Of a DNA stretch of 64,000 nt, positions 7,127 through 46,543 are shown one piece after another. Source of the DNA: an archaeon (GTDB lineage: Archaea > Nanobdellota > Nanobdellia > Pacearchaeales > GW2011-AR1); the NCBI GenBank assembly GCA_043810775.1, contig JBDRNU010000026.1, forward strand, positions 1-64,000, read 5' to 3'. Both the position numbers and the translations under genes were made by a program. Numbering within the stretch: the first letter of the stretch is position 1; every line of letters starts with the position of its first letter. The notes beneath the pieces were generated by a model. The model made no database searches. It worked only from the letters and a program-made list of their open reading frames with translations, and was not told the origin of the DNA.

Positions 7127-7267
7127 TATAAAGCTTATTGTAGCTGAACATTAACTAACTCTATGCAGGGAGTTAATTCAGTGGGCTAATATCTCTGATT
7201 TAGTCCCGCTCTTTGGCAACCTTTGGAAAAGGTTGACTATAAAGCTTATTGTAGCTGAACATTAACT
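7127..7267. repeat. Dispersed hairpin element copy A between perfect 30-bp direct repeats
   Basis: tataaagcttattgtagctgaacattaact at 7127-7156 and 7238-7267; internal sequence homologous to 9973-10068 and 46394-46543. Confidence 0.9.
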
Positions 7268-7268
7268 T

Positions 7269-8021
7269 TTAATCATCCAAGAACTCAATCTGCCCTACCT
7301 CCTCCCCACCCTCCAGCTCAATCTCGCTACTCTCTTCATCTTTAAATTCAGGAATTTCTTCAATTTCAGCTTTTTGCCTCTCCAGTTTCATTCTCTGCAA
7401 GTCTGCGATAGTAATTGTTTTCAGCGAGTTATTATCAAAATTTAAAACCCTCGCAGGTTTTCTAACTGCTTCAATTCTTTCCTGCTCTTTTTGAAACTCT
7501 TTTTTCCTTAAGAATATACCAAAATACTGCTCTAACTTATTTATAATTCTGTCACCATCTCCTGGCAAGTCTCCGCTTTCAATCATTTTCACTGCCTCTT
7601 CTGACTCACCTAAAGCATCACTTACTTGTTTTAAAGTCAGGTGCTTTTTTCTTCTCGCTGCCTGAATATGCCAGTGGAAATTATCCACAAGATATAAAGG
7701 CTTATTTCTAGCTATACTCTGTTGCCTTTTAATTTCAAAACTAGGCTTATCATAATTCTTAGCCTTAGTCAGCTTGTCTAAAGTAAGTTTAACCTTATCC
7801 TCTGTCTTACTGGCCGGAAGCCCAGCCATTCTGCTAAGTCTCTGATAAACAGTATAAGGCTTATCAGTCTCCCTTAACTGATAAGAAGTAGGTTTCCTGA
7901 TAATAGGAATTTCTTCAACTAGCGCACACTCTTCACAAATCCTAACTATCTCATCGCCATCAATTGCATCAAGAAGTCTGACTTCTTCTTCATCCCTTAG
8001 GCATCTGAAACACTGTTCCAT
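7269..8021 (-). CDS. Zn-ribbon plus HTH protein, archaeal MBF1-like
   Basis: CFRC...CEEC Zn ribbon, Cro/C1-type HTH (ARRKKHLT..VS..LGES..AVKMIESG); start moved to MEQCFRC. Confidence 0.75.
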   Translation of the reverse strand: MEQCFRCLRDEEEVRLLDAIDGDEIVRICEECALVEEIPIIRKPTSYQLRETDKPYTVYQRLSRMAGLPASKTEDKVKLTLDKLTKAKNYDKPSFEIKRQQSIARNKPLYLVDNFHWHIQAARRKKHLTLKQVSDALGESEEAVKMIESGDLPGDGDRIINKLEQYFGIFLRKKEFQKEQERIEAVRKPARVLNFDNNSLKTITIADLQRMKLERQKAEIEEIPEFKDEESSEIELEGGEEVGQIEFLDD

Positions 8022-8084
8022 AGCTGAGCTAAAAGGATTTAGCTTATTAATATTACTATAATGCAAAACATATGTCAACTAGAT

Positions 8085-8744
8085 TTATTTAAGTAAATTC
8101 TCCACTTCTTCAACACTCATTAGTTCTGTAATCTGGTATTTTTCATCTATCAATAAGCAAGGAACCTCACTAATATTATATTTAGCCATTAACAAATCCA
8201 GCGAATCAACTTGCAAGTCAGTTGCAATAGGAATCAGCAAGATTTCGTTGCCTCTCTTTTCCTTTAAATCAAGAGCAATTTTGGAAAAAACATTTTGAAA
8301 AGACTTAGTCTGAATTGGAGTATCCTCATAATCATATAAATAAACTACAGTATGAAAGCTATCATCACAGTTTTCCTTTATCTTAATGCTATTTACCCAC
8401 AGCATAGTTCTAAGAATATCATATCTCTTATGGGCAATTTTCAGTTCATCACTAATTTTACTGGAAGAATCATAATCCTCCAAAGTTCTGGCTTCCCAGT
8501 AAATCCTGTCAGCAAATTCAACATTTTTTTTCACAGCTAGTTCACAATCAAGATTAAAATCAGAAAATAAGTCACTCTGCAGCCTTAAGTCCATTAAATC
8601 TACCTGAGAATCTAAATAAAGATAATCCACTCTCTGTGTCCTAAAATTCTCAACTAAAGCCCCTATAAGCATTCCAAAGAAAAAAATCAGCATTGCTACT
8701 AGTAAAGCCTGCCAAAACACGTGCTTTTGATTTTTAACTACCAT
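8085..8744 (-). CDS. Membrane-anchored hypothetical protein
   Basis: N-terminal TM helix; start overlaps the glycosyltransferase stop. Confidence 0.7.
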   Translation of the reverse strand: MVVKNQKHVFWQALLVAMLIFFFGMLIGALVENFRTQRVDYLYLDSQVDLMDLRLQSDLFSDFNLDCELAVKKNVEFADRIYWEARTLEDYDSSSKISDELKIAHKRYDILRTMLWVNSIKIKENCDDSFHTVVYLYDYEDTPIQTKSFQNVFSKIALDLKEKRGNEILLIPIATDLQVDSLDLLMAKYNISEVPCLLIDEKYQITELMSVEEVENLLK

Positions 8745-9964
8745 TTGTATTTCTTCCTAGCTAGCCTGTAAACTGCAAAAACTAAAAGTATAGGTATTGC
8801 AGTTAAATACACTAAAGTATAAAACACAAGGTTAAAATAATTTTCCTTTTTCAACTGGTCTTCTTTCATAACCCTTAATGAAAAAAGAGTGAAAAACAAT
8901 CCAAGAATAAATAGCATTATTCCAAAATAAATTAAAATTGAAGGTGTCAAGTTTAAATCCTGCATAGTCAAAATAGCTGTCTGGGCATAAATTGAATAAG
9001 AAGTTGAAAGATAAGCTTTTAAAATCCTCTGCAAAAACAAGTAAGTAAATAATCCCAGCCCAAACAATCCTAAAAAAAGAGATACAACAAAAAATGGCAG
9101 AATAAAATACCCCAGCATGTTTCTCCTGAAAAATATGCCTTTATACTTATTTATTGTCTGTATTCCACCCATATTCCACCTCACCCTCTGCCTAAACCAC
9201 TTCTTAAAAGTAGAAGGGGCAGTAGTATAAGTTTTAGCTGCAAGGCACATCTTTGCCTTGTATCCATTATATACTAAGTGCCAGGTAACCTCAATATCCT
9301 CAGTCATATTCTTAGGATCAAAACCTCCAATCTCTCTTAAAGCTGATGCCCTGTAAATGCTCAAAGGCCCGTTAGTCACATAAACAGAATCCACATAATC
9401 CAGCATTTTTCTGGTCCATGCAATCACAGTATACTCAAAAGCCTGCAAAGTTTCAATAAACTTATTATTCTCCCTGACTAGTATGGAATTTGTAACTGCT
9501 CCAACCTTGCTGTCATTAAAAAAACCTATCATCTTTTCCATTGAGTCTTTCAAAGGATAAGAATCAGAATCAGTAACAGCCATTAGCTCTCCCTTAACTA
9601 GCTTGAGTACCTTATTCAAGCTATTAGCCTTTCCCAGATTTTTCCCATTATCAACTAGTATCAAATTTTTATACTCTTTTTTTAGTTTAAGTATAATTTC
9701 TTTTGTCTTGTCAATAGAGCCGTCATTTATCACAATCACTTCATATAAAGGATAAGTTGAGTCAAATACATGCCTGATTGTAGTCTCAATTGTCTCTTCT
9801 TCATTATAAGCTGGAATAACTACACTTAGCCTGTATTTCTTTCTAGCTCTTGGATAATCAAAAAGAGTTTTTCTATTTTTAAGATAAATTAAAATAAAAA
9901 AACTCATCATATAAATTCCAATGAACATATACGCTAAATATATAATAGTAAGTATCTCTACCAT
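8738..9964 (-). CDS. Processive GT2 glycosyltransferase (PgaC/IcaA/cellulose-synthase-like)
   Basis: IPAYNEE, NDGS, DSD, TED and QRVRW motifs plus TM helices. Confidence 0.92.
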   Translation of the reverse strand: MVEILTIIYLAYMFIGIYMMSFFILIYLKNRKTLFDYPRARKKYRLSVVIPAYNEEETIETTIRHVFDSTYPLYEVIVINDGSIDKTKEIILKLKKEYKNLILVDNGKNLGKANSLNKVLKLVKGELMAVTDSDSYPLKDSMEKMIGFFNDSKVGAVTNSILVRENNKFIETLQAFEYTVIAWTRKMLDYVDSVYVTNGPLSIYRASALREIGGFDPKNMTEDIEVTWHLVYNGYKAKMCLAAKTYTTAPSTFKKWFRQRVRWNMGGIQTINKYKGIFFRRNMLGYFILPFFVVSLFLGLFGLGLFTYLFLQRILKAYLSTSYSIYAQTAILTMQDLNLTPSILIYFGIMLFILGLFFTLFSLRVMKEDQLKKENYFNLVFYTLVYLTAIPILLVFAVYRLARKKYKW

Positions 9965-10084
9965 TTTGAATATTAACTAACTCTATGCAGGGAGTTAATG
10001 AGGTGAGGTAATATCTTACATCAGTAAGATTTAGTCTCGCTGTTTGCCAAGCTTTATAAAGCTTGACTTACCATTTTGAATATT
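9959..10084. repeat. Dispersed hairpin element copy B between perfect 16-bp direct repeats
   Basis: taccattttgaatatt at 9959-9974 and 10069-10084; the repeat contains the GT2 start codon. Confidence 0.9.
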
Positions 10085-10141
10085 GAAATATCCCCAGTCT
10101 AAATTTATTCTTTTTTCTCTTCTTCTTTCTGTCAGAAATAC

Positions 10142-10699
10142 TTACTGATGTTCGTATTTCTGAGCATCCAAAAAACTCTCAGATTTGCCAGAGTTTTTTT
10201 GATTTCCAACAGCAAAATAATCATAAAAATTCTCGCTTAAGCTCAGCTCCTTAGTCCTTCCAGCTTTCTTAGCTCTTATTAAGCCTAGCTCTGCAAAATT
10301 CTTTACATGTTCATAAGCCTTATTGCCTCTAATCTTAATAATTACAGACTGTTTAACTGGCTGTTTATAAGCAATAATTGCAAGTGTTTCTTGTTCTGCC
10401 CTTGTAAACTCAGCTGAACCAGTAGCCAGCCGATTAACCATTTCCATATGCTCCTGCTTAACATCCATTTTCCAGCTATTATCCTTTCTCACAATCTCAA
10501 TTCCAGAATCATCACTATACTTATCCTCTAGCTTGGAAATAATCTCCTTTAACATAATAGGGTTAACATCAGTCAGAGCCACTAGCTCTTGCAAGCTAAG
10601 ATACCTTCCAGAAATAAACAAGGCTGCCTCTATTTTCTTCAGGCTGTTAATTTCTATTGCCCTGTCCAAATCCTCATTTGTTTTTTTAGATAAATCCAT
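10142..10699 (-). CDS. scpB: SMC-Scp complex subunit ScpB
   Basis: IEAALF, ETLAIIAYKQPV, IIKIRG motifs. Confidence 0.92.
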   Translation of the reverse strand: MDLSKKTNEDLDRAIEINSLKKIEAALFISGRYLSLQELVALTDVNPIMLKEIISKLEDKYSDDSGIEIVRKDNSWKMDVKQEHMEMVNRLATGSAEFTRAEQETLAIIAYKQPVKQSVIIKIRGNKAYEHVKNFAELGLIRAKKAGRTKELSLSENFYDYFAVGNQKNSGKSESFLDAQKYEHQ

Positions 10700-10885
10700 A
10701 AAGAAATAATAATTTCAGTATTTTTAAAATGTATGCTAATCAAAAAGATTATCAGAACACTGACTTCTGCCCTAAATAAACAACAACATGAGTAAACCTA
10801 TCACTTCCAGGTGATTTAATAGCTTCATCACTTTCTGCTCCATCTTCAACATGATAAACAACTTCATTTACTTTGTACATCCCGC

Positions 10886-11098
10886 TTAAAGAATTAAAGC
10901 GTCAATTATAACTAACACAACTCCCACTAAAGTCAGTATTACTATTGCCCATCCAGCAGCTACTGATAATGTCACTAAATAAGGAACTGTCAAAGTCTTA
11001 GAAATCATACCATGGCCTACAGCCAGTGATACTAAAACACCAACTAGCCACGCTAAAAAGCTCCATACCTTAGATAAAGTGCCTGATTTTTTTGCCAT
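10886..11098 (-). CDS. Small 2-TM membrane protein
   Basis: 70 aa, two hydrophobic segments, GGAGG SD upstream. Confidence 0.75.
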   Translation of the reverse strand: MAKKSGTLSKVWSFLAWLVGVLVSLAVGHGMISKTLTVPYLVTLSVAAGWAIVILTLVGVVLVIIDALIL

Positions 11099-11163
11099 TT
11101 TTTACCTCCTTTTAGATAAGTTAACAAGGTTAAATTTATATTTAAACCTTGCTTTAATAATAA

Positions 11164-11673
11164 ATGAAAAAAATGGGGAAAATATTAATTCCAATAACCA
11201 TATTACTCATAATAATACTCAGTTTACTCATAATTAGGGCTTTTTCAGAAAAACAGCTTGATGATGTCTCTCCAACAGTTACTTGCTCTCCTGAACTGCT
11301 TGAAAAAGCAGATGTTCTTTATATTATCCCCAGCTATAAAAACCAAAATATTTCATCTAATCAAGAATGGTGCCGCTCTATTCTCTTGCTAAATAAAAAA
11401 CTTGCTCTTCACGGAGTTTATCATACTTACAAGGAATTTTCAACTGACAGAAGCAAGGAATATCTTGAAAAAGGAATAAAAGAATTTGAAAACTGTTTTA
11501 ATCTCAAGCCAGAAGAATTTAAATCACCCCAGCTAGCCACCTCAATCACTAATAAAAAACTAATAAAAAATAATAATTTAAAGCTAAATGGGATAGCTAA
11601 TCAAATTTTCCATAAAGTCTATCACTGCGATAATTCTGGAACTTTTCCTAATTGGCTTATGAACTGGATTTAG
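11164..11673 (+). CDS. Exported polysaccharide-deacetylase-like protein (DUF2334-like)
   Basis: N-terminal TM, LDDV.P, LHGVYH metal-binding motif, F..P. Confidence 0.7.
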   Translation: MKKMGKILIPITILLIIILSLLIIRAFSEKQLDDVSPTVTCSPELLEKADVLYIIPSYKNQNISSNQEWCRSILLLNKKLALHGVYHTYKEFSTDRSKEYLEKGIKEFENCFNLKPEEFKSPQLATSITNKKLIKNNNLKLNGIANQIFHKVYHCDNSGTFPNWLMNWI

Positions 11674-12238
11674 CTGAAATTCTTTCATGCTGAGGATGCC
11701 ACATACTACACCAATTATTATTTCTAATGTTCACCCCATATTTTTCTGAATGTAATTTTGATAATACAACATTAATAATATCTATCGGCATTTCACCACC
11801 AATATTAAAAACTATCACTCCAGTTTTCTTTTTAATAACTCTCAACATTTCTCTTAAAGCCATTTCTGTATTTATGCTCTTTGGATACCATCCAACAGCT
11901 TTAGTAGAATAAGCAAAATCAAATGATTCATCTTTAAAAGGTAATTCTTCTGCCAAAGCTCTTAAACTTTTATTAGGAAAAGCAGGTTTTATTATTCTAT
12001 AAACAATTCCATCACCATTTCCCATAATTCTTCCAAGATTAGGATCAATACCAAACAAATTCTCAGCTTCTCCAAGTTGTTCTCCATAAAAACCACAACC
12101 AACATCAAGAATCATCTTCCTACTTTCTTCTTCACTAAACCCAATTCCTGCCAAACCGTGATCCCAGCCATCGCTAACATTAGTGCAATAATTATAAGAA
12201 GTTCTATCAAAATTTACTGATGAATTAATATTTTTCAT
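11657..12238 (-). CDS. Class I SAM-dependent methyltransferase
   Basis: ILDVGCG, GID, AEELPFKDESFD, ALREMLRV motifs. Confidence 0.85.
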   Translation of the reverse strand: MKNINSSVNFDRTSYNYCTNVSDGWDHGLAGIGFSEEESRKMILDVGCGFYGEQLGEAENLFGIDPNLGRIMGNGDGIVYRIIKPAFPNKSLRALAEELPFKDESFDFAYSTKAVGWYPKSINTEMALREMLRVIKKKTGVIVFNIGGEMPIDIINVVLSKLHSEKYGVNIRNNNWCSMWHPQHERISAKSSS

Positions 12239-12288
12239 AGAAAACTATTAAAATAATAATTCTTAAACTTTTCTAATTTAAAGCTTCC

Positions 12289-12516
12289 CTAACTTATAAA
12301 CAAGTAGACTAATATTATAGCAATAATAACAACAACAATCCAAAACCACTTACTTTTAAGCAATGAAGAAAAAAAGCCTTTTGTTTGCTTAGCTTCTGAC
12401 TTTGTCCTTGAACCTGTATTTTTAACTCTCTGAACAGTGTTTATTGTTTTGTCAATTGGATTCAAGACACTATTAACCTTGTCTGATGCCCTGCTTAATG
12501 AATCTAGTGCTCCCAT
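12289..12516 (-). CDS. Small tail-anchored membrane protein
   Basis: Start moved to MGALDS (GGAG upstream); helical N-terminal part, basic/Trp juxtamembrane segment, C-terminal TM. Confidence 0.7.
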   Translation of the reverse strand: MGALDSLSRASDKVNSVLNPIDKTINTVQRVKNTGSRTKSEAKQTKGFFSSLLKSKWFWIVVVIIAIILVYLFIS

Positions 12517-12578
12517 TTTAAATCTCCATAACACCTCTTTAATACAATAATTTCTAATGCTTTTTAAATTTTCCTGAA

Positions 12579-13661
12579 TTACAGCTGAAATCTCAGCAAA
12601 GCCCCAATTCCACCCAAATTCCAAAACTGCTCGCCTTCTGGAGTTTCAACAGAAACAATCTCAACTGTCGCAGAAATAGCTTCACCAGCCTGCCTTAACT
12701 CTTTTATTACATCTTTTTTTAGCTTCTTGCTTAAAATTAAAATATTCACAGCGCCGTATTTTAAAGCTCTCTTAACCTCGCTTAATCCATAAGAAACCTT
12801 CTCAGGTCTCTTGCCAAGAGTTTCAAAAAAATTCTCTAATAGCTTTTTTTCCTTAATAATTTCCTGCTGGGCAAGAACATCCTGGCTTAGCTCTACTAAG
12901 TCCTCTAATCCAGATTCATCAGTATTTCCTAAATCCTTTACAGCAATGACCATATCCTTTAGCTTAGTTACTAACTGCCCCTGGTCTAAAAAATCCTCCT
13001 TAGTTGGAATAGGGCCTCCAATCAGTATCCCCTTTAATCTAGGCATATCAAAAAACAACTCTTTCATTGCATCTGCAATTCTTCTGAAAAAATCCTTAGC
13101 CAGCCCTTCAGTAATCCTATGAAATCTCTGGCTTGATTGACCGCCAGCCCTGACTTTCCCAGGCACTCCTGAAGTCATTTTTCTTAGTAATTTAATCTGC
13201 TTTCCTTCTAATAATCCAATACTGGCCTCTTTCCTGTCCATAACAAGCAGTCCATAAACCTCTTCAACTTTAGTCATATCTTTTAATGGCTCTATTACAA
13301 AAGTCTGGTCGCATCTATAAAGTCTTGTCTTCATAGGCTGTGGCGGCTCAATAGTCCATAATTGTATATTTTCCTGACCCTCTTGCTCAGATACATTTCC
13401 AGCAAAAACAGCCATCCCATTTTTAGGGGTTTCCTTATACAACTTTAACTCGCGGGAAATTCTCTCTAAGCTATCTAAAACAGCTTTCCTGGTATTCTTG
13501 CTTTTAATATTTACAGCTGTAGATTTTTCAGCATCAATTTGCTTAGCTACTGCATTAATATTAAATCCAGCAGGTATATACACAGTTATTAGTTCAGTAT
13601 GCCTGCCCCTGATTTTTTCCAGCTCTTCAATCAGCTCTTCAAATTCATATTGTTCTGTCAT
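12579..13661 (-). CDS. prf1: Peptide chain release factor aRF1
   Basis: NIKS, YRCD and GGQS motifs. Confidence 0.96.
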   Translation of the reverse strand: MTEQYEFEELIEELEKIRGRHTELITVYIPAGFNINAVAKQIDAEKSTAVNIKSKNTRKAVLDSLERISRELKLYKETPKNGMAVFAGNVSEQEGQENIQLWTIEPPQPMKTRLYRCDQTFVIEPLKDMTKVEEVYGLLVMDRKEASIGLLEGKQIKLLRKMTSGVPGKVRAGGQSSQRFHRITEGLAKDFFRRIADAMKELFFDMPRLKGILIGGPIPTKEDFLDQGQLVTKLKDMVIAVKDLGNTDESGLEDLVELSQDVLAQQEIIKEKKLLENFFETLGKRPEKVSYGLSEVKRALKYGAVNILILSKKLKKDVIKELRQAGEAISATVEIVSVETPEGEQFWNLGGIGALLRFQL

Positions 13662-13662
13662 G

Positions 13663-15984
13663 TTAAATAAACTCAACTCCTAATTTACCTTCTTTAATTT
13701 CCCTGCAATTATGCGCCTTAATCAAGTCACTCTTAAATTTCACTAAAGACTTGGGAATATGCAAGGATTTAATTTCAGATTTTAAGCTCAAGCCCTTGTC
13801 TTTTTTTTCTTTCCATACAAGGCTGTTAAGCTCAACGAGCTCTTTTGTTTCTTGAATTTCCTTGAACTTGTTTTTAAAGAATTTCTCGCTATTAATATCC
13901 TTACCATAAAGCTCTTCAGATATATAATCACACATAAAAGGAGTAATTGGACTTAGCAAAATTAAAACACTCCTCAAACAATAGTGTAAAGTATAAAGCG
14001 CAGACTTGTCATTACTATAAGCCCTTGACTTTACTAATTCAAGATAATTGCTTGCAAATAAATTCCAGACAAAATTCCTGATTGCATTGCTTGGTATAAA
14101 AAAATTAAACTCACTATATCCTTTTTCACATTCTGCTGCAAGATTTTCTAATTCAGATACTATCCATTTATCTAGCTCTTCAAGTTTAGCTGGCTTTTTT
14201 TCTTCCTTGAAACTAGAAATAAATCTGGCAACATTCCAGAATTTAGATAAAAACTTGCTTGCAACCTCAATCCTAGCTTCAGAGCATCTAAAATCACTTC
14301 CTAATGCAGCTTCAGATGCTGCCCAAAATCTAAAAGCATCTCCGCCGTATTTTTCTATTATAGGAATAGGGTCAACTACATTGCCCTTGCTTTTGCTCAT
14401 TCTCTCACCTTTCTCATCTAGCCCAGAACCCATCACCCAGGCAGATTTCCAAGCCTGCTTATCAGTTAGCTGATAACATCTTAATAAAGTATAATATAGC
14501 CAAGTTCTCACAATATCCTTTCCCTGAGGCCTTATTGAATTAGGAAATGTCTTGTTGAAAAAATTCTTGTCTTTTTGAAACTTTGAAATATACAGTGGCG
14601 AAATGCTTGAGTCCATCCAGGTATCAAAAGTCCTTTCATCACCTTTCCAATCACTTGCACCACACTTGCATTTTTCTTTTATTTTCTGCTTCCAAGGCTG
14701 ATGATAGGTTTTATAATCTGCCTTGGGAACATAAATCTTCTCGCAAGAAGTGCATCTCCAAACAGGAACCTCTGTTCCATAATATCTTCTTCTTGAAATA
14801 GGCCAGTCCATGCTCACAGAATTAATCCAGTTAACTAACAACTGCCTGTTCATCTCTGGATAAAAAACTAGTTTTTCAGAAAATTTCTTTAAAATAGGCA
14901 GAAAATCAAGCTGTTTCAGATAAAACTCATTCATGGAAATAATCTCAATAGGGGTATTGCTCCTCTCACAAGTGGGAGTCCTGTGATTTATTTTTTCAGT
15001 TTTTTCAATTTTCCCCTCTTTTTCCAAATCTGCAATAATTTTTTTCCTTGCCTCCAATATTTTTAATCCTTTATAATCTCCTGCCTTTTCAGTCATCTTA
15101 CCCTGCTTATCTATAGCAATTATTTCTTGTAATTTCAGCTCACGAAAAATTCTTACATCATCATAATCTCCATAAGAGCAAATCATTACAGCTCCAGAGC
15201 CAAACTCAGGCTTTGCATAGTTATGGGCAACTATTTCTACCTCCCTCTCAAATAAAGGAATAAATGCATGCTTTCCACCCAATCCTTTATATCTCTCATC
15301 CTTAGGATTAAACATCACCACCTGGCAAGCACATAATAATTCAGGCCTAGTAGTGGCAATTACTATATCTTTTCCTGTTTCCTTGACTCTGAATTTAATA
15401 TGCACTAATTCCGTAGGAATTTCCTCATAGCTTATTTCTGCATCTGCAATAGTAGTTCCGCAATCTACACAATAATTATTCGGCCTTGTATCTTCATAAA
15501 TTAATTTCTTATTCCATAGCTCAATAAAAGTAGATTGTGTCAAAGCCCTGTATTCTTTAGAGTCAGTCCTGTAATAATTTTTAAATTCACAGGACATACC
15601 CATATTTTTCATAATTTCAAGCATCTCAGCTTCTAAGTCATCTAAAGCTACAGAACAGAGCTCTACAAATTTCTCTCTGGGAGTAGAATGCATCTTTATC
15701 TTATTCTTTTTCTCAGTATATCTTTCAACCGGAAGCCCATTTCTGTCTATCCCTATTGGAAAATGCACATTCTTACACTGCATTCTCGCTGTTCTTGCTA
15801 TCATGTCTATCTGAGAATAATGTGCTGCAGCTCCAATATGCCAAGGTCTTCCTGAAGGATATGGCGGTGGCGTATCTATGGCAAAATTATCTTTTCCTGG
15901 CTTAAAGCTAAAAGTATCATTTTTCTGCCACTTCTTAGCTATCTTCTTTTCTATTTCCCTATTCCAGGATTTTTCTTTAAGCAT
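13663..15984 (-). CDS. valS: Valine--tRNA ligase
   Basis: DTPPPY, HIGA, ATTRPE, DTWMDSS, RMSKS. Confidence 0.95.
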   Translation of the reverse strand: MLKEKSWNREIEKKIAKKWQKNDTFSFKPGKDNFAIDTPPPYPSGRPWHIGAAAHYSQIDMIARTARMQCKNVHFPIGIDRNGLPVERYTEKKNKIKMHSTPREKFVELCSVALDDLEAEMLEIMKNMGMSCEFKNYYRTDSKEYRALTQSTFIELWNKKLIYEDTRPNNYCVDCGTTIADAEISYEEIPTELVHIKFRVKETGKDIVIATTRPELLCACQVVMFNPKDERYKGLGGKHAFIPLFEREVEIVAHNYAKPEFGSGAVMICSYGDYDDVRIFRELKLQEIIAIDKQGKMTEKAGDYKGLKILEARKKIIADLEKEGKIEKTEKINHRTPTCERSNTPIEIISMNEFYLKQLDFLPILKKFSEKLVFYPEMNRQLLVNWINSVSMDWPISRRRYYGTEVPVWRCTSCEKIYVPKADYKTYHQPWKQKIKEKCKCGASDWKGDERTFDTWMDSSISPLYISKFQKDKNFFNKTFPNSIRPQGKDIVRTWLYYTLLRCYQLTDKQAWKSAWVMGSGLDEKGERMSKSKGNVVDPIPIIEKYGGDAFRFWAASEAALGSDFRCSEARIEVASKFLSKFWNVARFISSFKEEKKPAKLEELDKWIVSELENLAAECEKGYSEFNFFIPSNAIRNFVWNLFASNYLELVKSRAYSNDKSALYTLHYCLRSVLILLSPITPFMCDYISEELYGKDINSEKFFKNKFKEIQETKELVELNSLVWKEKKDKGLSLKSEIKSLHIPKSLVKFKSDLIKAHNCREIKEGKLGVEFI

Positions 15985-16034
15985 ATCTGTCCATATTAAC
16001 TAAATCTTTTAAACCTTACTGCCTATTATTTAGC

Positions 16035-19876: not shown

Positions 19877-19877
19877 A

Positions 19878-34519: not shown

Positions 34520-34524
34520 TTCAA

Positions 34525-37135: not shown

Positions 37136-37310
37136 GCATAATAAAGAAAAAATAATTATTTAAACCTTGTTAATATAATTATTTCATCCTCTCTACTAAT
37201 GCCTAAATTCTTTCACAATATTTGCCTGTCATAATCTTTTTTAAATTTTTCCTTTCTCATTCGGAGAGCTTTTCAGCAAGGTTTTTAAGGCAGTCTTAAT
37301 AAGATAGATT

Positions 37311-38168: not shown

Positions 38169-38179
38169 AATCAAAAAAT

Positions 38180-38620: not shown

Positions 38621-38636
38621 ATCAATCAAAATAGAA

Positions 38637-39017
38637 TTATCCTGTCTTAGCAATAAAAAGCTCCACTAACGAGCCCCTGTCTACAAGCTCTTCAGCATAC
38701 TTCCTGACTTCCTCTATTCCCGCTTCATCACCTTCATTAACCATATCCATAACAGTCATAGCGCATTTCTTTGTATCATGAAACATAGCTAACTTGCCTG
38801 TTTCGTTTAGTAAGTGTTCTTCAAGCTTAAAAATAGTACCATTTGTTGAATCAAAAAGTGCAAACTCCCCTTGCCCCTTAAAAACAGGAGCAACACTCAA
38901 ATATGTCTGCAAAATAGTGCCTAATAAAGGAGAATAATCAACACCAGAAATACTTATATTCCTTTTAATGTCATCTTCTATATGAGATTTAACATAATCA
39001 ACATTTGCATTTGGCAT
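38637..39017 (-). CDS. Hypothetical protein (ORFan)
   Basis: 126 aa with its own promoter. Confidence 0.6.
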   Translation of the reverse strand: MPNANVDYVKSHIEDDIKRNISISGVDYSPLLGTILQTYLSVAPVFKGQGEFALFDSTNGTIFKLEEHLLNETGKLAMFHDTKKCAMTVMDMVNEGDEAGIEEVRKYAEELVDRGSLVELFIAKTG

Positions 39018-39056
39018 TTTAAAGCTATAATCATTATATTCTTAAATGTTTCTATT

Positions 39057-39578
39057 TTATTTAATAAAAAACCACAGATAAAATACATTCATAATAGTAT
39101 ACCCTAAAGTAATCACCAATGTTAATATAAAAATCTTTGAAGATTCTGGGATAATAAAACCTAACAAGATTAGAATAATTGCATAGATGATAAAATAAAC
39201 TTTAATGTATTTTTTCAATTTATTGAGATTCTCATTTTTAAGACAAAAAATTCTTGGCATCATAAAAACAGCTGCCCAAAAGCTAAACATTCCTATCTGA
39301 TTCGCATCAAGATTCAACCAAGGAGCGTTTCCAAGTAAAAACCATTCAAACATCAATCCAAAAGTGCTTGCAATAATGTAATAAAGAATTTCTGAGTAAG
39401 GTTTCCTAATTTTATTTATGATTTTGCCTAAGAAATAAGCAAAAGTTAAAAGAGTAAAATATATTATAAATGTAAAAAGATATGAATTAATATTTTTTAA
39501 AATAAGTATATTTAAAACAAATTCTGCAACTGTGGCGAATAGTATTCCTATAATAATAAACTTAAAAAATTTGTTCAT
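39057..39578 (-). CDS. Multi-pass membrane protein
   Basis: About 6 TM segments. Confidence 0.7.
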   Translation of the reverse strand: MNKFFKFIIIGILFATVAEFVLNILILKNINSYLFTFIIYFTLLTFAYFLGKIINKIRKPYSEILYYIIASTFGLMFEWFLLGNAPWLNLDANQIGMFSFWAAVFMMPRIFCLKNENLNKLKKYIKVYFIIYAIILILLGFIIPESSKIFILTLVITLGYTIMNVFYLWFFIK

Positions 39579-39654
39579 TTTGAAATCCTCACCATATCTA
39601 AATCATCAACTAACTGACTTTTCTTAAACTTTTCGGTTAATTTTTTGTCTTTAA

Positions 39655-40611
39655 TTAAACTAAAAAATTCTCCTTATTAGTGACTATTCTTTTTCCAAAG
39701 CTCAAAATAGCTATCTTCCTAAGAGTATTGGGAAATTTCTGCTTCATTAGTTCAAGCTCTTCCTGCAGTTGCGAAATGCTGGGATAAACAAAATCTACTT
39801 CATAATCCCACAAGCCCAGCATCTTAGTAATATATCTCACATTTTTATTAGACATAATATAATTCTCAAATTCACTGGTTTTTTTTAAGTTCTGCACCTG
39901 AAATAATAACTTAAAAGTATTATACTTAAATTTTCTCAAGTCCAAAGTTAAAAAATATCCAGTTATCACTCCATCCTTTTCCAGCTCCCTCATTCTGGCA
40001 GAAACAGTCTTTGGTGAAAGATGGGTTTCCTTTGCAATATCTACAACATTCATTCTAGGATTATATCTAAGAACAAGAAGAATTTTTTTATCAGTATCAT
40101 TCAAGGAAATTTTCTTGCCTTTTTTGAAAATCTCATACATATTATGAATGGGCTTTTCATGAATAAAACTATGCCTAAAATAAACCTGTTTAAAAATTAT
40201 CTGCATATCCTTCTGATTTATCTTGCCTGCAAACTTCCTATTAAACTCACTTTCCTGAAAAATTAAATCATCAAAATTATTTACTAGAAAGCAAACACAT
40301 AAGTCATAAATCCCATAAAATCTTGCAGCCCATAAAATATTCTTATACTTTTTAACCTCCCTAATCACTTCATTCTCTGTCTGCTCGTCATAAAAATCAA
40401 AAGTATAATACACCTTCACCATAGTATATCCTAAAATCTCATTATTCAGGCCAGTGGCATTGTGAAGCATGTACTCTTTTAGTTTTTCAAATCTTAATGC
40501 AACAGAATTTTTAGAAAGCCTAACCTTTTTCCCAATTTTAGAAAAACTTTGTCTAAAATTAATATCAATCTCCTTTAGTATGGCATAATCCTTTGCATCT
40601 AACTTCTCCAT
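39655..40611 (-). CDS. Tandem (double) Lrp/AsnC-family transcriptional regulator
   Basis: Two HTH plus RAM modules (LDAKDYAIL...GIYD; LNDTDKKIL...GLWD). Confidence 0.88.
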   Translation of the reverse strand: MEKLDAKDYAILKEIDINFRQSFSKIGKKVRLSKNSVALRFEKLKEYMLHNATGLNNEILGYTMVKVYYTFDFYDEQTENEVIREVKKYKNILWAARFYGIYDLCVCFLVNNFDDLIFQESEFNRKFAGKINQKDMQIIFKQVYFRHSFIHEKPIHNMYEIFKKGKKISLNDTDKKILLVLRYNPRMNVVDIAKETHLSPKTVSARMRELEKDGVITGYFLTLDLRKFKYNTFKLLFQVQNLKKTSEFENYIMSNKNVRYITKMLGLWDYEVDFVYPSISQLQEELELMKQKFPNTLRKIAILSFGKRIVTNKENFLV

Positions 40612-40812
40612 AAAAACAAATGCACTCTTAAATATAAAAATCTTTGTCTTTTATAATAAGACACAAAATACTATCACCCACTAAAAAATACTTATCTGTC
40701 ACAGATATATAAGATATGATCATACTTTAACCCATTAATTAACTGCGAAACTTCCAGTATGTCATAAAATTCAACCATGCTAGTTTAAGTAAGATTATTC
40801 AGTAAAAAGTAT

Positions 40813-41958
40813 ATGCACAATTCAACTTCTTCACTGTCTGTAAAAGAACTTGAAAACCTGTTAACAGAAGGTAGATTTCCAATTACTCCAAAATCTGAGC
40901 AAAAAAAATTTATAAGAGACCCAATAAGTAGAGACATTGTAGTATTTTGCCCAGAAAGAGACCAAATTCCAGCTAATATAACAGAGCTTCAAACAACTCT
41001 GGCTCAAACTAAAGATAAATCTCAAAGCTGCAGAATCTGCGAAGGAAAAACAACAAAGATTGAAGGTGTAAAAAGAACTGGTCAAGATACTTTTACATTT
41101 TATAATAAAAACCCATTCCCAGCACTAAGTCGAACTGGAATTGAAAATATCCTTCCAGATTCTTCAGAACCAACAAAAAAACTCGTGGGTGAAAACTATT
41201 TATTATGGGTATCTAATGAGCATAAAGATATCCACCAACTATCTCATAAAGAGCATCAGGCCTGTTTTGAACTGCTTGCAGAACTTGAAGGAGAACTCCA
41301 CGGAACCGGATTTGTTTATATTTTTAAAAACACTGGAGCAGAAGCAGGAGCCTCTCAAGAACACGGGCACTATCAAATAGAATTTCTGAATACTCTTCCA
41401 AGAATAATTGAAGAAAACAAAAAATTTGCAATGACATTTAATAAATCAAGAGTAGCTCACTGGCTAGACTCAACACCCAAAGAACTCGAAGTTAAAGATT
41501 ATGAAAATGCAAGAATAATAATCCCTCCATTTATGAAAACACCTTGGAGAGCTATAATTCTTGCAAAAACAAATCATCCTGATAAAATGCTTAATCTAAG
41601 AGGTTGTATGGAGGATGGAGGCATACAAGACCTTGCCGCAGCTACTTCTGATATGGCTTATGCCCTAAGTCTGCTAATGCCTGCTCGGGGTTTTCCACTT
41701 TCTTATAAGCTCATTTTCCACACACAGCACACCCACCTGGGAAGAACAGGCCAGATGTATATAGAAGTTATACCTCTTCTGCAAAAAATGGGAGGGTCAG
41801 AAGAAGGAGGAGTTTATTTTCCCAAAGATTCCCCTCAAAAAGCATCAGAAAGATACCGAAGATGTTTTGATAATTATATCTTTGGAAGAGAAGAAGATTC
41901 CAGCCAGCCCTCTTCCAATGAAGTATTTAAAAATTGTATAGCCCCACTATTAAACTAA
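40813..41958 (+). CDS. GalT-like (HIT-superfamily) nucleotidyltransferase
   Basis: RDP....V...P.R, C..C, NPFPAL, FKN.G..AGAS..HGH.Q. Confidence 0.8.
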   Translation: MHNSTSSLSVKELENLLTEGRFPITPKSEQKKFIRDPISRDIVVFCPERDQIPANITELQTTLAQTKDKSQSCRICEGKTTKIEGVKRTGQDTFTFYNKNPFPALSRTGIENILPDSSEPTKKLVGENYLLWVSNEHKDIHQLSHKEHQACFELLAELEGELHGTGFVYIFKNTGAEAGASQEHGHYQIEFLNTLPRIIEENKKFAMTFNKSRVAHWLDSTPKELEVKDYENARIIIPPFMKTPWRAIILAKTNHPDKMLNLRGCMEDGGIQDLAAATSDMAYALSLLMPARGFPLSYKLIFHTQHTHLGRTGQMYIEVIPLLQKMGGSEEGGVYFPKDSPQKASERYRRCFDNYIFGREEDSSQPSSNEVFKNCIAPLLN

Positions 41959-41968
41959 AAGAAGTAAA

Positions 41969-42634
41969 TTACTTATTGAAAATTTCTTCCCTGACTTTCT
42001 TTCCGTATTTATGGGCAAGAACAATTGGTTCAGGAAGCTTATGTGGCTTGACTATATATTTCTTAGTGAATTCAATCGCACTCTTTAAGCTTACTAAATT
42101 TCCAGGGCTGACATAAATAGGCTTGCTTCCTTCCTTACTGACTAAAACCTTTCCAACTTCCTTGCCATCTAATAAAACACTTTCACCTTTTTCCTCACCT
42201 ATGACCAAATTATCAGCAACACCAATTGCAGGAGATCCAGTAGCAATCGAAAAATGACTTGCTAATCCTAATCTCACATGAGCAGTACCATGCCCATGAA
42301 TAAACATAATTTCTGGCTTCACTTCAAGCTTATCATAACAAGATACCATTGAAGGTAGCTCTCTATAAGCCCTAAATCCTGAGATATAAGGGAATTTAAG
42401 TTTGTCTGAAAAATACTCCTGAGCAACAATCTCTCCATCCCTATCTACCACAACAATAGCAGAAATTATCTTATTCTCAAAAAAAATATTATCGCATCCA
42501 CCTACTAATTCTACTTCAGAAAAATCTCGAGAATCCTTAATACTCAAAGTCTTCGCTAGCTTAATCTGCTCATCCTCCAGTTTTTTCAAATTAATATTAT
42601 ACTTTTCAGCTACATCTTCAGGTTTCATGTTCAC
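41969..42634 (-). CDS. nfi: Endonuclease V-like protein
   Basis: PYISGF.AYRE.P, GLASH, PIYVSPG, LPEP; the usual DGxG motif reads HGHG. Confidence 0.85.
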   Translation of the reverse strand: MNMKPEDVAEKYNINLKKLEDEQIKLAKTLSIKDSRDFSEVELVGGCDNIFFENKIISAIVVVDRDGEIVAQEYFSDKLKFPYISGFRAYRELPSMVSCYDKLEVKPEIMFIHGHGTAHVRLGLASHFSIATGSPAIGVADNLVIGEEKGESVLLDGKEVGKVLVSKEGSKPIYVSPGNLVSLKSAIEFTKKYIVKPHKLPEPIVLAHKYGKKVREEIFNK

Positions 42635-42747
42635 GCTCTTTACAAAATATATACAAAGGTATTTAAACTTAAATATATAATAAAATATTAATTAAAAATC
42701 TTTCTCTAATCCAAGGGAAGGAACGTGAGTGTCTTAATTAAGATAAA

Positions 42748-43446
42748 ATGTCAATATTTAGTAAAAAATGCGGAAGATGCAATAAAGAATTAGCCAAGAA
42801 TTTTGAGTTCTGCCCATTTTGCGGAGCTAATCTTAGAAAACAAAAAGAAGAACAAAACTTCGGACTGCTCGGAAGAGAAGATAACTTCTTCGATATGAAT
42901 ATGGTCAGAATGCCTTTTGGATTTAACAAGCTATTTAACTCACTAGTCAAAGAGCTGGATAAACAGTTTAAAGAACTAGACAAAGAAATGACCCACGAAA
43001 TAAAGGAAAAGAAAGTGAAAAAACCTCAGCAGTTTCCTAATAATTCTGGGATTAGCATAAAAATATCAACTTCAACTGGCAAGCAGCCAGAAATAAATAT
43101 TTCTGGATTTGGTCCAGAGTTTGAAAAAATTAAAGATGATATTGAGGAAAAGCCGGTCATAAGAGCACATATTACAGATGAACAAGCCAAAAAATACTCT
43201 AAACTTCCAAAAAAAGAAGCCATGACTAAGGTTCGCAGGCTTAGCAACAAAATAGTTTATGAAATTACCTTGCCCGGAGTAAAATCCCTAAAAGAAGTAA
43301 TAATTAATAAACTTGAAAATAGTATTGAAATAAAAGCATTTAGCAAAGACTCTGCGTATTTCAAACTCCTTCCTGTAAATCTTCCTCTTGTTGATTATAA
43401 ATTACAAGATGAAAAACTAATTTTAGAATTGCAAACTAATCAATAA
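42748..43446 (+). CDS. Zn-ribbon plus HSP20-like domain protein
   Basis: CGRC...CPFCG; C-terminal LPGVK, SIEIKA alpha-crystallin-like region. Confidence 0.75.
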   Translation: MSIFSKKCGRCNKELAKNFEFCPFCGANLRKQKEEQNFGLLGREDNFFDMNMVRMPFGFNKLFNSLVKELDKQFKELDKEMTHEIKEKKVKKPQQFPNNSGISIKISTSTGKQPEINISGFGPEFEKIKDDIEEKPVIRAHITDEQAKKYSKLPKKEAMTKVRRLSNKIVYEITLPGVKSLKEVIINKLENSIEIKAFSKDSAYFKLLPVNLPLVDYKLQDEKLILELQTNQ

Positions 43447-43449
43447 AAA

Positions 43450-43956
43450 TCAATTATTAATTCTAGAACCTGATAATATCTTCTCTGTTTTATCTAGTTC
43501 GCCTCTAAATTGTTCAGGAGTATAAATCTGCCTTTCATCATCAAAAATATAGCTTATTTCTCCATCTAGCTTCAATGAATCATATAATCCTTTTGTTGCA
43601 CTAAGCACCTCTCTTGCCAGTTTACTATCACAAAAACTCGCATGGCTTCCACTGCTCACTTCAGCAACTAAAAAAAGATCTTTGCCTTTTAAATAATCTG
43701 GAAGAGTTTCTAAATCTAAATTTCCCCATTGCCATAAACCAACTAATTCATCAGGCACATCAATAAAAGGCTGTTCTCTGCAAAGTAGTCTCCCATCACC
43801 TTTTGAAAACTTAGTCCACCCCTCTCTCTTGTCATAAAAGCAATTAAAAGCTGGATAAATACTTCTTAATAGTTCAGAAACACTGCTTCTTACATTAGCA
43901 AAATCTATTTCAGTTTCACCAACAGCTAAAATCTTTCCTTGCAATGAATGGCTCAT
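43450..43956 (-). CDS. Hypothetical protein (ORFan)
   Basis: 168 aa; flanked by an 11-bp direct repeat. Confidence 0.6.
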   Translation of the reverse strand: MSHSLQGKILAVGETEIDFANVRSSVSELLRSIYPAFNCFYDKREGWTKFSKGDGRLLCREQPFIDVPDELVGLWQWGNLDLETLPDYLKGKDLFLVAEVSSGSHASFCDSKLAREVLSATKGLYDSLKLDGEISYIFDDERQIYTPEQFRGELDKTEKILSGSRINN

Positions 43957-44003
43957 CCTGGTTTAAACAAGTAAACAGTTTATAAGAATTATTATACTTG
44001 AAC

Positions 44004-44768
44004 TCAATAAAAATATTTCAAAGCTTCTTCAATACTTCCAACCTCTATGACTTGGACTCCAGTTTCTTCAGTAAGATTGACTTTTCTTGGCTTAGTTTCA
44101 GTAGTGCACAGCTCACTAGTGCCAAAAGTCTCGCAAGAATCTTCAGATTCATACACTATATCTCTGCTTTGTAATAAAGGAACTAAAAAAGTCTTAGCAC
44201 CAGCATCTCCTGCAGCTTTTGCCTTTGCAAGTATCTCTGAAACAGGACCTATGCTTCCATCCCTATTTATAGTTCCAGTAATCATTACATCCTCCCTTAC
44301 ACTCTTGCCTTCGATAGCAGCAATAGTTGCAATTGCCAGTGCCGCTCCTGCACTCGGCCCACCAATAATACTCGCATTTGCCTTTATAGAATAAATTAAA
44401 TCATAATTATTTACATCTTCTTCAGAAAGTTCTCCTGCAACTAACCTGGCTATTCTTATGCTATGCTGAGTATCTGCCCAAAAAAGAAGATTATCTATAT
44501 CAGTAAGAGTTCTCCCGCTTCCAGGCATTGCCTCAACAAAAAGAACAGTGCTAACACCATTACCATCAGAATCAACAGCAGGAAGCATCATACTCAGTAA
44601 AGTTAAATCCCCTTCCTGAATAAAAACAGGCTCAAACTTGCCTTCATTTTCAATATTTAATTCACTAGGGCTATAAATCACTAAAAGAAGCTCCAAGACA
44701 ATTAAAATAAAAACTATAGCTAGCAAATACCTCCAAAAATAATTCTTAGTGACGCTCTTTTTAACCAT
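44004..44768 (-). CDS. Membrane-anchored Lon-like (S16) serine protease domain
   Basis: GPSAG, ITGTI..DG.IGPV, catalytic Lys; N-terminal TM. Confidence 0.88.
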   Translation of the reverse strand: MVKKSVTKNYFWRYLLAIVFILIVLELLLVIYSPSELNIENEGKFEPVFIQEGDLTLLSMMLPAVDSDGNGVSTVLFVEAMPGSGRTLTDIDNLLFWADTQHSIRIARLVAGELSEEDVNNYDLIYSIKANASIIGGPSAGAALAIATIAAIEGKSVREDVMITGTINRDGSIGPVSEILAKAKAAGDAGAKTFLVPLLQSRDIVYESEDSCETFGTSELCTTETKPRKVNLTEETGVQVIEVGSIEEALKYFY

Positions 44769-44776
44769 TTCTGATA

Positions 44777-45847
44777 TTATTGAAAAACCTCAATCTTATC
44801 AGACAAAAAACCTTTAATAAGTTTTGCCTTTTTATCGTCAATTCCATCAAGTCTCACAAGCTCGCTAGTGTCAGAATAAAGAATTCGTTTTAATTCCTTA
44901 AAATTACTAATTAATAAATCAATCTCATTTTTATTAAGGGGAGATTTAGAAAGCAGCCTATAACCTAAAGGGCCAAAATTAATCTTACCTTCATCTTGCC
45001 CATTATTTCTGGAGTAATTGTCTATTATTTTTTTAGACTGCTCAAATGTGGGAGTCTTTAAAGATTTAATTTTCCTAATTACATCATCTGTACGAAAGTA
45101 GCGGTCATAATCTTTCTTTAGATTATTAATTTCCTCCTTTAAACCACTAGTCACAATATTATACCTCGCTTTAAGAGTCTCTCCATACTTGCCAAGCTCC
45201 CCAATATAAATTGAACTCATTTCACAATCTCTAAAAAATAAAATTAATCTATTAATAATTTGAGCTAAATCACTAACACTGACTAAAGAAGAAACTTCAA
45301 GCAAATCAAACTTCTTTAAGTACATATTTAACTCCACCCTCTGCCCTTCCAAGTTTTCTACAACTTCTCTAGCCTTATATAAAAGTTCACTTAAATCACT
45401 AAGTACATGCCTCTGATTTCCATAATATACTGAAATCAAAGAAGATTTTTCTGAAACAGAAATAACAATAGTGCCAAGTTGTTTGGCAGCTCTCTCAGCA
45501 GCCTTGTGCCTAGTGCCTGTCTCCTCACTTTTAATCTTAGAGTCAGGAATAAGCAAAGCATTGGCATATAAAATCTTCTTAAGTTTTGAGTCAACAATTA
45601 TTGCACCATCCATCTTAGCTAGCTCAGCAAGCTTGTTTGAAGTAAATCTAGAATTAATTGCAAAACCTCCATCAGCAATATCTTTTGCAGACTCAGATAA
45701 GACAATTAAAGCCCCCCTATTAGATTTGGAAATTCTCTCTAAAGCTTCCCTAAGCTCACTACCATAAGAAAAAAGCTTCAGGACATCAGCCAGATGATAG
45801 TCTTCCATAATCTTATTTTCAACCAGTTTTTTTTGAGCAGTTTCCAT
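44777..45847 (-). CDS. disA: DisA-like diadenylate cyclase
   Basis: ELAKMDGA, ETGTRHKAAER, helical linker, PLGYRLL, C-terminal HhH. Confidence 0.88.
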   Translation of the reverse strand: METAQKKLVENKIMEDYHLADVLKLFSYGSELREALERISKSNRGALIVLSESAKDIADGGFAINSRFTSNKLAELAKMDGAIIVDSKLKKILYANALLIPDSKIKSEETGTRHKAAERAAKQLGTIVISVSEKSSLISVYYGNQRHVLSDLSELLYKAREVVENLEGQRVELNMYLKKFDLLEVSSLVSVSDLAQIINRLILFFRDCEMSSIYIGELGKYGETLKARYNIVTSGLKEEINNLKKDYDRYFRTDDVIRKIKSLKTPTFEQSKKIIDNYSRNNGQDEGKINFGPLGYRLLSKSPLNKNEIDLLISNFKELKRILYSDTSELVRLDGIDDKKAKLIKGFLSDKIEVFQ

Positions 45848-46005
45848 CTTAACCTCTTTTGTTCACAAAAGATAAACCTTGCCAATATTTATAATTTTCT
45901 CTTATGACAAGTTCAAATTAATTGAAATAGATTTTTTACTTTTAAACCTTTGTTACCACTTAAAGAATTAGAAATGTTAGATGTTAGGGCGTTGATGAAA
46001 ATCAA

Positions 46006-46305
46006 TTACTTATTTCTCTTTTTATACATATCAGTCCATTCTTCACTCAAAGGCCATCCTTCAAATTTTTCACAAGGAAAAAGCTCACAATCTTTTGAAC
46101 AAACTTCAAGCTTTTTCTTAACACAACATTCTAAAACAGGGCAACCAACTCCTTCTTTATTTAATTTATCTACTGCCTCTTGTGTTTTTGTGCAACCTTT
46201 ACAAATACCTTTTACATGAAGACCACAAGTTGTGCAACAAATCCCACAACACCCCACTAAAAGAGCCTTATCTTGTTTAGGATTTTGCTGTTCCATATTA
46301 CTCAA
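46006..46305 (-). CDS. Cys-rich small protein (DUF3795-like)
   Basis: CCG.CC..C, C.GC, C....CC, C..C..FPC. Confidence 0.75.
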   Translation of the reverse strand: MSNMEQQNPKQDKALLVGCCGICCTTCGLHVKGICKGCTKTQEAVDKLNKEGVGCPVLECCVKKKLEVCSKDCELFPCEKFEGWPLSEEWTDMYKKRNK

Positions 46306-46393
46306 TTAAAATTAAAGTTTATAGACTTTCCGTTCAAACTTCCCGCTTCACCTCCAAAAATAAAAATTCTCGTTCAAATCCAAAAGGCGAACC

Positions 46394-46543
46394 ATTAACT
46401 AACTCTATGCAGGAAGTTAATGTGGTGAGGTAATATCTTACATCAGTAAGATTTAGTCTCGCCTCTTCAGAATTCCTTTGAATTCTGAGAGTCGTCAAGA
46501 ATCTTTGATTCTTGAGATTTGCCAAGCTTTTTAAAGCTTGACT
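46394..46543. repeat. Dispersed hairpin element copy C (long form with two extra hairpins) abutting the tRNA-Ile 3' end
   Basis: Near-identical to copy B, plus tcagaattc-cttt-gaattctga (46467-46488) and tcaagaatc-ttt-gattcttga (46495-46515). Confidence 0.9.

Follow-up and report, generated by a model that had tools for sequence, protein, structure and literature searches.

Small three-hairpin repeats confined to one archaeal genus insert at gene boundaries with long, variable target duplications

MITEs (miniature inverted-repeat transposable elements) carry inverted repeats and produce fixed short target duplications, and repetitive extragenic palindromes (REP) and other IS200/IS605 derivatives produce no duplication and need a Y1 transposase. 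The junctions of L1 and of short interspersed elements (SINEs) are precise at the 3' end and show microhomology, filler bases or truncation at the 5' end. Three further systems have been described. Small dispersed hairpin elements occur in the compact mitochondrial genomes of sponges and Allomyces, and an RNA intermediate has been suggested for them (PMC2800124); IS1549 and IS1634 generate variable direct repeats of 8-514 bp, for which no accepted mechanism is reported (PMC2266710); and Replitron-1 inserts in a specific orientation, with variable duplications and a fuzzy end that carries flank of the parent copy (PMC10288648). Here, we analysed a stretch of 64,000 nt from an archaeon of the Pacearchaeales (genus GW2011-AR1; assembly GCA_043810775.1, contig JBDRNU010000026.1, positions 1 to 64,000), hereafter the window, which holds three copies (A, B and C) of a short multi-hairpin repeat. 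These copies belong to a family that is real, previously undescribed and genus-specific, that takes its place among small non-autonomous structured repeats, and that inserts in a copy-and-paste manner at gene boundaries, duplicating 0 to ~34 bp of the target.

The window forms contig C26 of a 995-kb genome (G000; 26 contigs, 33% GC), whose archaeal markers include the termination factor FttA/aCPSF1, an RpoL-type subunit and intron-bearing tRNAs. The only other species of the genus (G001) is syntenic with it at ~70-75% identity. Both are metagenome-assembled genomes, with completeness of 80% for G000 and 85% for G001, and the public runs in which parts of the stretch occur come from metagenomes of groundwater and biofilm. 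Genes were called as greedy longest open reading frames (ORFs), with no gene finder, and this applies to all counts of gene position and orientation given below.

Fourteen full copies in G000 were identified concordantly by BLAST, a fuzzy motif scan, nhmmer and a covariance model, and two fragments are present as well (Table 1); the element length is 74-150 nt. The full copies include the three forward-strand copies that had been recognized in an earlier reading of the window made from the sequence alone (the sequence-only reading), and a 12-mer resembling the tail, located where contig C2 ends, suggests that assembly broke at least one further copy. The 26-nt head of the element occurs three times in the window and not once in 100 shuffles. 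In G001, the covariance model detected eight copies at E<=0.01 and one weaker copy, and it detected none in the other 59 genomes to which it was applied, which represent as many other genera of the family. Searches with the exact head pattern, allowing a variable loop, gave no matches in three public collections (genome, viral and metagenome contigs), and copy C gave none by blastn against phage and plasmid collections. With up to three mismatches the head pattern had no match in 40 relatives, a setting too strict for the G001 heads, which differ at five positions. Only tRNAs in the window reached the Rfam gathering score; at E<=1, nine element loci yielded only tRNAs and two chance-level matches, none of them on the elements. 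Literature searches on archaeal MITEs with variable duplications and on DPANN hairpin repeats, supplements aside, yielded no description of the family.

That these sequences have been inserted is evident from their flanks. When the right repeat was required to begin no more than 6 nt from the tail, exact flanking repeats of at least 10 bp were found at 10 of the 14 full copies and of at least 13 bp at seven, as against 0.43% and 0.03%, respectively, of 3000 random pseudo-elements; the T-rich 10-mer at C3:42486, counted among the ten, is doubtful. The repeats around copies A and B are perfect, with periods of 111 and 110 bp, just as the sequence-only reading had described them. In G001, repeats of 25, 21 and ~11 bp were detected, and a further 45-bp repeat at a tandem site.

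Comparison of orthologous sites, which leaves out the non-alignable C16 and C7:36885, shows a single repeat copy and no element in G001 at the sites of copies A and B, which are empty alleles of the kind that the sequence-only reading had proposed as a check. The element is likewise absent from the G001 site of copy C, at a tRNA-Ile gene, and from that of C3:25639-25732, where two genes lie 1 nt apart. Conversely, the G000 site corresponding to the G001 C9 copy is empty, and so is window position 8738-8758, where a 7-nt gene overlap is intact; in G001 (C19:9198) a 21-bp duplication lies across this same overlap around an element, and both ORFs are intact. Both ORFs are also intact at C3:25639, where the 24-bp duplication consists of the first eight codons of the downstream gene. 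Only one of ~22 loci is shared (C2:22741-22816 in G000, C6:11798-11877 in G001), a hot spot at which both species carry tandem elements. Four sites empty in G001 and two in G000 thus identify these as real insertions with target duplication, and the reciprocal empty sites, together with the one shared locus, indicate that the family has moved in both lineages since the species split. The proposal of a non-autonomous, structured mobile family with long, variable duplications is therefore borne out by the empty sites of A, B, C and C3:25639-25732. Integrase att sites were also considered as the origin of the repeats and dropped, because each repeat is specific to its locus and the sister species has it only once.

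Chance similarity or an assembly artefact could be invoked, given that repeats break this assembly and that G000 contig ends share overlaps of exactly 141 nt, which reflect the k-mer of the assembly graph and make several contigs joinable. The probability of such an explanation is close to nil: the shuffle and random-site controls speak against chance, the second genome holds related copies with duplications of its own, and copy A with both of its repeats is present, without differences, in unitigs of two public runs from one study (7127-7256 and 7127-7267 covered). Copy A is therefore not peculiar to the assembly, although these runs may be the source sample. Contigs from four DNA runs contained no joint that skips an element, at a cover too low and patchy to inform on empty alleles in the population.

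Every copy is composed of three hairpins, P1-P2-P3, with 2-6 nt linkers and almost no single-stranded flanks. Throughout the family, P1, which forms the head, has an ATYAAC/GTTRAT stem and a conserved loop; spelled out, this is an ATTAACU/AGUUAAU stem with an AA/GA internal loop and a 6-nt loop. Most G001 heads have a plain stem of 6 bp and a loop of 8 nt, e.g. ATCAAC-AGUCUAUG-GUUGAU, in which a T-A to C-G change is compensated. P2 is either a bipartite hairpin of greater length or a short GUUGUGCU..AGCACGAC hairpin, and always begins with G/U-U-G and ends with C-G-C/A, which creates a U.G wobble. The P3 stem, AAGCUU or AACCUU, is followed by a tail of 2-4 nt, such as GACU. Long forms possess two extra hairpins, situated within the P3 loop in C4, C9 and C7:7053 and between P2 and P3 in copy C. 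The absence of terminal inverted repeats, already pointed out in the sequence-only reading, holds for 14 of 14 copies: when the 5' end is compared with the reverse-complemented 3' end, 7-10 of 16 positions agree, as in shuffled ends.

In an alignment of 24 copies from both species, 94.8% of cells are paired and both sides have changed in 20 of 33 pairs, values that none of 500 shuffles reached; slid controls are only 26-47% paired. The compensatory stem changes first quoted for the window copies are real and form part of this wider pattern. The third pair of P2 is U.G in all 24 copies, the stems contain 48 G.T against 9 A.C, and the head-first strand folds more stably in 13 of 14 copies. The strand with the conserved structure is thus the head-first one, be it RNA or single-stranded DNA (ssDNA).

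Structural conservation of this kind could also mean that the elements are functional small RNA genes, or cis-acting RNA or DNA structures associated with promoters or 3' ends, maintained by selection and only secondarily mobile. The head and the U.G wobble are kept between two species whose coding DNA is only 70-75% identical, P1 and P2 pairing at the shared locus survives changes on both sides, and the copies are regularly positioned and oriented relative to genes. Moreover, four copies have the duplicated TATA box 21-23 nt upstream of where the head begins, a distance that would work for an archaeal promoter. However, a TATA-like sequence at the right distance is missing in many copies, the loci are shared between the species in just the one case, and nothing in Rfam matches at E<=1, so that we regard this explanation as distinctly improbable. 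Among specific RNA classes, C/D-box or H/ACA guide RNAs were dropped as no consistent boxes were seen by eye, hammerhead or other ribozymes for want of an Rfam match, and a tRNA-like fold because the acceptor stem is absent.

The two ends of the element differ in precision. The tail junction is tight, with the right repeat beginning at the tail, while the position of the left repeat relative to the head is variable: the two overlap by 7 nt in copy A, 5-6 nt in the C16 copy and 3 nt in copy B, and are 4-19 nt apart in six copies, giving a range from 0-14 nt of microhomology to filler bases. At the G001 hot spot, the repeat takes in 14 nt of a resident head, and a headless, that is, 5'-truncated, copy is flanked by its own 24-bp repeat.

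Landing sites are also patterned. Six of 12 duplications begin with TATAAA or TTTAAA, the gene-strand form of the duplication start being the motif CGAAAGSTTTAAA. Since this motif is also found at other places in the genome that have no element, and sits 21-35 nt upstream of start codons, we read it as a promoter consisting of a B recognition element (BRE) and a TATA box. The break falls 6-7 nt into the TATA box, and the edge of the copy A duplication is the TATA box (7125-7132) of an RpoL-like gene. A stop codon or tRNA 3' end lies no more than 5 nt from the tail, or from the outer limit of the tail-side repeat, or is overlapped by it, in 16 of 23 copies; in five of these 16 the repeat begins 0-2 nt past the stop despite a longer spacer. 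Orientation is biased as well, 20 of the 23 copies being antisense to the tail-side gene, which is read toward the tail, with one ambiguous case and two exceptions (C7:36885 and C2:19142). CGAAAG(G/C)TTTAAA has 13 exact sites upstream of genes in G000, including a tandem pair at window position 52703-52740, and looks like the BRE/TATA consensus of leaderless genes. Copy B separates the downstream gene from its native TATA box; its P3 (window 10043-10065) is a perfect palindrome, AAGCTTTATAAAGCTT, that resembles the promoter motif in both directions and might act as a carried-in promoter.

Taken together, these features lead us to a reading to which we assign about an even chance, namely that a non-autonomous element is inserted as a copy of a single-stranded intermediate, by primed synthesis guided by microhomology, through either target-primed or template-switch events. 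A precise tail and a fuzzy head, 5' truncation and duplications of 0-34 bp fit a polymerase that copies a discrete single-stranded form from tail to head; target-primed retroposition and template-switch repair are processes whose products include such junctions and variable duplications. According to this scheme, the head-first strand would exist as a single-stranded copy, RNA or ssDNA, with its ends set by the terminal hairpins. A polymerase would be primed from the nicked gene-sense strand at the tail junction, with the nick often at a TATA box's downstream edge or immediately beyond a stop codon or the 3' end of a tRNA. Synthesis would run from tail to head, followed by rejoining upstream through 0-14 nt of microhomology. 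The expected outcome would be a variable duplication with occasional filler bases and 5' truncation, rather than the product of a cut-and-paste DDE reaction. The inserting enzyme may be a host polymerase or primase, and the coincidence of the reproducible ends with the outer hairpins suggests that the intermediate is trimmed or structure-defined.

Several observations weigh against this scheme. The single-stranded intermediate, whether RNA or ssDNA, is one that we infer; the reproducible ends are unlike pure microhomology switching and make a discrete intermediate necessary; and the clustering of breakpoints 0-2 nt past stop codons is left unexplained by the model. No convincing repeat flanks five of the 14 full G000 copies (C, C9:27924, C2:38660, C2:19142 and C3:42486), and five of the nine G001 copies lack a repeat of at least 8 bp. 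The alignment used for covariation was fitted to the model, and near-identical copies differ by whole P3 modules, so that some of the 'compensatory' changes are swaps and not independent events. As for the enzyme, the reverse transcriptase (RT) family RVT_1 remains below cut-off in G000 and is absent in G001; the single RVT_1 match in G000, at 15 bits, is the termination factor FttA, not an RT. More broadly, the few Pfam families tried yielded no polymerase or nuclease partner, an absence that is not proven given the incompleteness of both genomes. It is conceivable, though rather unlikely in our estimation, that the family represents an archaeal counterpart of retroposons, in which a hairpin-bounded small RNA or ssDNA would be copied in by a host polymerase or primase, with no canonical RT. 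Its insertion would be aimed at the kinked edges of TATA boxes bound by the TATA-binding protein (TBP) and at the 3' ends of transcription units, and its variable duplication would spare overlapping gene junctions.

Alternatively, the family could be the remnant of a DNA transposon mobilized in trans by an unrecognized transposase making variably staggered cuts, of the IS1634/IS1549 type or, as in Replitron-1, of the HUH type. Long variable duplications are on record for the former (PMC2266710), and variable duplications with a fuzzy end for the latter (PMC10288648). Reproducible element ends, biased orientation and one fuzzy end would agree with this, and hairpins on one strand would suit an enzyme acting on ssDNA. 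On the other hand, the elements lack terminal inverted repeats, and searches with a few Pfam families left the 80%-complete G000 unmatched by DDE_Tnp_1 (the sole DDE family searched; controls positive), Y1_Tnp (controls positive in 6 of 14 genomes), TnpB-type proteins (controls positive) and Cas_Cas1 (controls positive in 7 of 14 genomes). Blank results for Viral_Rep, Rep_1 and Y2_Tnp are uninformative, as their controls were silent too. No multi-copy IS-like gene was found in G000 either. On balance, we consider trans-mobilization unlikely. The genome check proposed by the sequence-only reading, for RT, HUH and Cas1-like genes, identified no RT, Y1 or Cas1 gene in the available part of G000. 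Two paralogous Xer-like tyrosine recombinases are encoded in this genome (window 739-1551 and C6:11712-12569), the first directly upstream of topoisomerase I (1555-3765).

A third possibility is the SINE-like retroposition of an RNA co-transcribed with tRNA-Ile and freed by tRNA 3' processing, with copy C as the master; a tRNA-cotranscribed master copy had been raised as a possibility in the sequence-only reading. Among 15 G000 copies or fragments, five have one of ~27 tRNA genes no more than 60 nt away, three G000 copies abut tRNA 3' ends within 0-1 nt, and the duplications are variable. Nevertheless, copy C proves to be a lineage-specific insertion without target duplication, missing from the same tRNA-Ile locus in G001, and in G001 no tRNA lies within 1.5 kb of any of the nine copies. 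The strand with the conserved structure is antisense to the tRNA, so that a tRNA-linked RNA would carry a C.A mismatch at the invariant wobble. The master-copy idea therefore fails. From the broader notion of SINE-like retroposition the retroposition-like polarity of the junctions survives, but no RT domain reaches threshold in either genome, and we judge the tRNA-linked route very improbable. Read by eye, the tRNA beside copy C appears to be a tRNA-Ile with anticodon GAU and a 13-nt intron at 37/38. Its G001 ortholog has a plain CTGATAA anticodon loop, with neither intron nor element, which implies intron gain or loss within the genus. An element also abuts the 3' end of a 123-nt tRNA recognized by Rfam at C9:27800-27922, which has ~50 nt inserted and was not called by ARAGORN.

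Other repeats were encountered in the same genomes. G000 contains a second multi-hairpin family of ~180 nt, present in 6-7 copies that often break contigs and carrying a GGATGAGC..CTGAGCATCC motif; two of its hairpins are built into copy C as the extra hairpins of the long form. Between copy B and the stop of gene 10142-10699, ~80 nt (window 10127-10207) with a 10-bp-stem hairpin and a TTTCTGAGCATCC motif are absent from the orthologous G001 site and match two other G001 contigs (C4 and C45), and may possibly be another small mobile or RNA element. Finally, a 523-bp duplicated gene 3' end (C2:38150-38670 and 51990-52509, 84% identity) stops in both copies at an element tail, the second being cut by the contig end.

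Table 1. Positions of element copies, their flanking repeats and associated features. Contigs are those of G000; C26 is the window.
Feature	Contig	Position	Strand	Remarks
Copy A	C26	7150..7238	+	P1 head 7150-7177, P2, P3, tail ..TTGACT; covariance model 87.9 bits
Copy A, left repeat	C26	7127..7156		30 bp; begins inside TATA box of rpoL-like gene; overlaps first 7 nt of head
Copy A, right repeat	C26	7238..7267		30 bp; ends 1 nt short of stop codon (7269-7271) of gene 7269-8078(-)
RNA polymerase subunit L-like gene	C26	6846..7103	-	RNA_pol_L_2, 53.6 bits
Copy B	C26	9972..10068	+	covariance model 106.2 bits
Copy B, left repeat	C26	9959..9974		16 bp; contains start codon (9962-9964) of glycosyltransferase gene 8738-9964(-)
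Copy B, right repeat	C26	10069..10084		16 bp; G001 has one repeat copy, no element
Copy C	C26	46394..46543	+	long form; two extra hairpins ~46464-46517 between P2 and P3; no target duplication
tRNA	C26	46544..46633	-	3' end abuts copy C tail; left unnamed by ARAGORN
Empty site	C26	8738..8758		7-nt gene overlap + 14 nt; 21 bp duplicated around element in G001 (C19:9198-9280)
Full copy	C2	48930-49027		repeat 14-15 bp = tRNA-Thr 3' end
Full copy	C2	38660-38757		
Full copy	C2	22741-22816		repeat 15-16 bp
Full copy	C2	19142-19237		
Full copy	C3	42486-42559		
Full copy	C3	25639-25732		repeat ~24 bp, 2 mismatches
Full copy	C4	12705-12851		repeat 13 bp
Full copy	C9	27924-28070		
Full copy	C16	1183-1282		repeat 32 bp
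Full copy	C7	7053-7197		repeat 10 bp
Full copy	C7	36885-36961		repeat 34 bp, left copy interrupted by 19 nt
Fragment, headless copy	C2	adjoins 22816		
Fragment, head only	C23	7080-7106		
Second family	C26	46481-46517		
Second family	C8	1-147, 3019-3165		
Second family	C22	both ends		
Second family	C5	4583-4862		
Second family	C10	34146-34270		

Mobile DNA is regarded as scarce in small-genome archaea such as these, and yet two genomes of ~1 Mb, with no recognizable transposase, have undergone recent and repeated insertions of a structured element. Long variable duplications permit insertion into 1-nt spacers and even into 7-nt gene overlaps without damage, and thus offer selfish DNA a route to persist in an almost all-coding genome. 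The precise tail, the fuzzy head, the breakpoints at TATA edges and gene ends and the invariant U.G provide handles for finding the insertion enzyme or host-polymerase route, and the anatomy of the junctions bears on whether archaea have a retroposition-like process.

Among known systems, the family resembles MITEs, REP and bacterial interspersed mosaic elements (BIME) and IS200/IS605-derived palindromes in being short, non-coding, intergenic, modular and structured, with modules swapped between copies. It differs from MITEs in its lack of inverted repeats and in duplications of 0, 10, 13, 14-15, 15-16, 16, 21, ~24, 25, 30, 32 and 34 bp, and from IS200/IS605 derivatives (PATE/REP) in having duplications at all, with no Y1_Tnp or TnpB-type match. 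Casposon- or CRISPR-type integration relies on a Cas1 integrase, which was not found in G000. The attC site of integrons is a folded single-strand site with AAC..GTT boxes, used by a tyrosine recombinase without target duplication; the P1 sequence ATYAAC..GTTRAT and the two Xer-like recombinases recall it, but the boxes in P1 are only 8-16 nt apart and duplications are present. With SINEs the family shares variable duplications, a precise 3' junction, 5' truncation, a 5' junction with microhomology and filler, and one strand that is structured and RNA-like; unlike SINEs, it has no A-rich or LINE-derived tail (LINE, long interspersed element), and no RT was found in the two genomes. We know of no SINE-type internal promoter in archaea.

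Long variable target duplications are shared with IS1634 and IS1549 (PMC2266710), but these insertion sequences are 1.5-2 kb long, with terminal inverted repeats and a DDE transposase, whereas the present elements have no inverted repeats and G000 no DDE_Tnp_1 match. Orientation bias, variable duplications and one fuzzy end are shared with Replitron-1 (PMC10288648). Replitron-1, however, is eukaryotic, encodes a Rep and has short terminal direct repeats, and no HUH gene was found here in a few searches whose controls were partly silent. Like the mitochondrial hairpin and double-hairpin elements, the family is small, intergenic, confined to close relatives and devoid of a transposase (PMC2800124). 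It differs from these elements, which are organellar and of which those of Allomyces are reported to lack duplicated flanks, in its archaeal host and long duplications (PMC2800124). These mitochondrial hairpin elements are the nearest biological analogues of the archaeal family.

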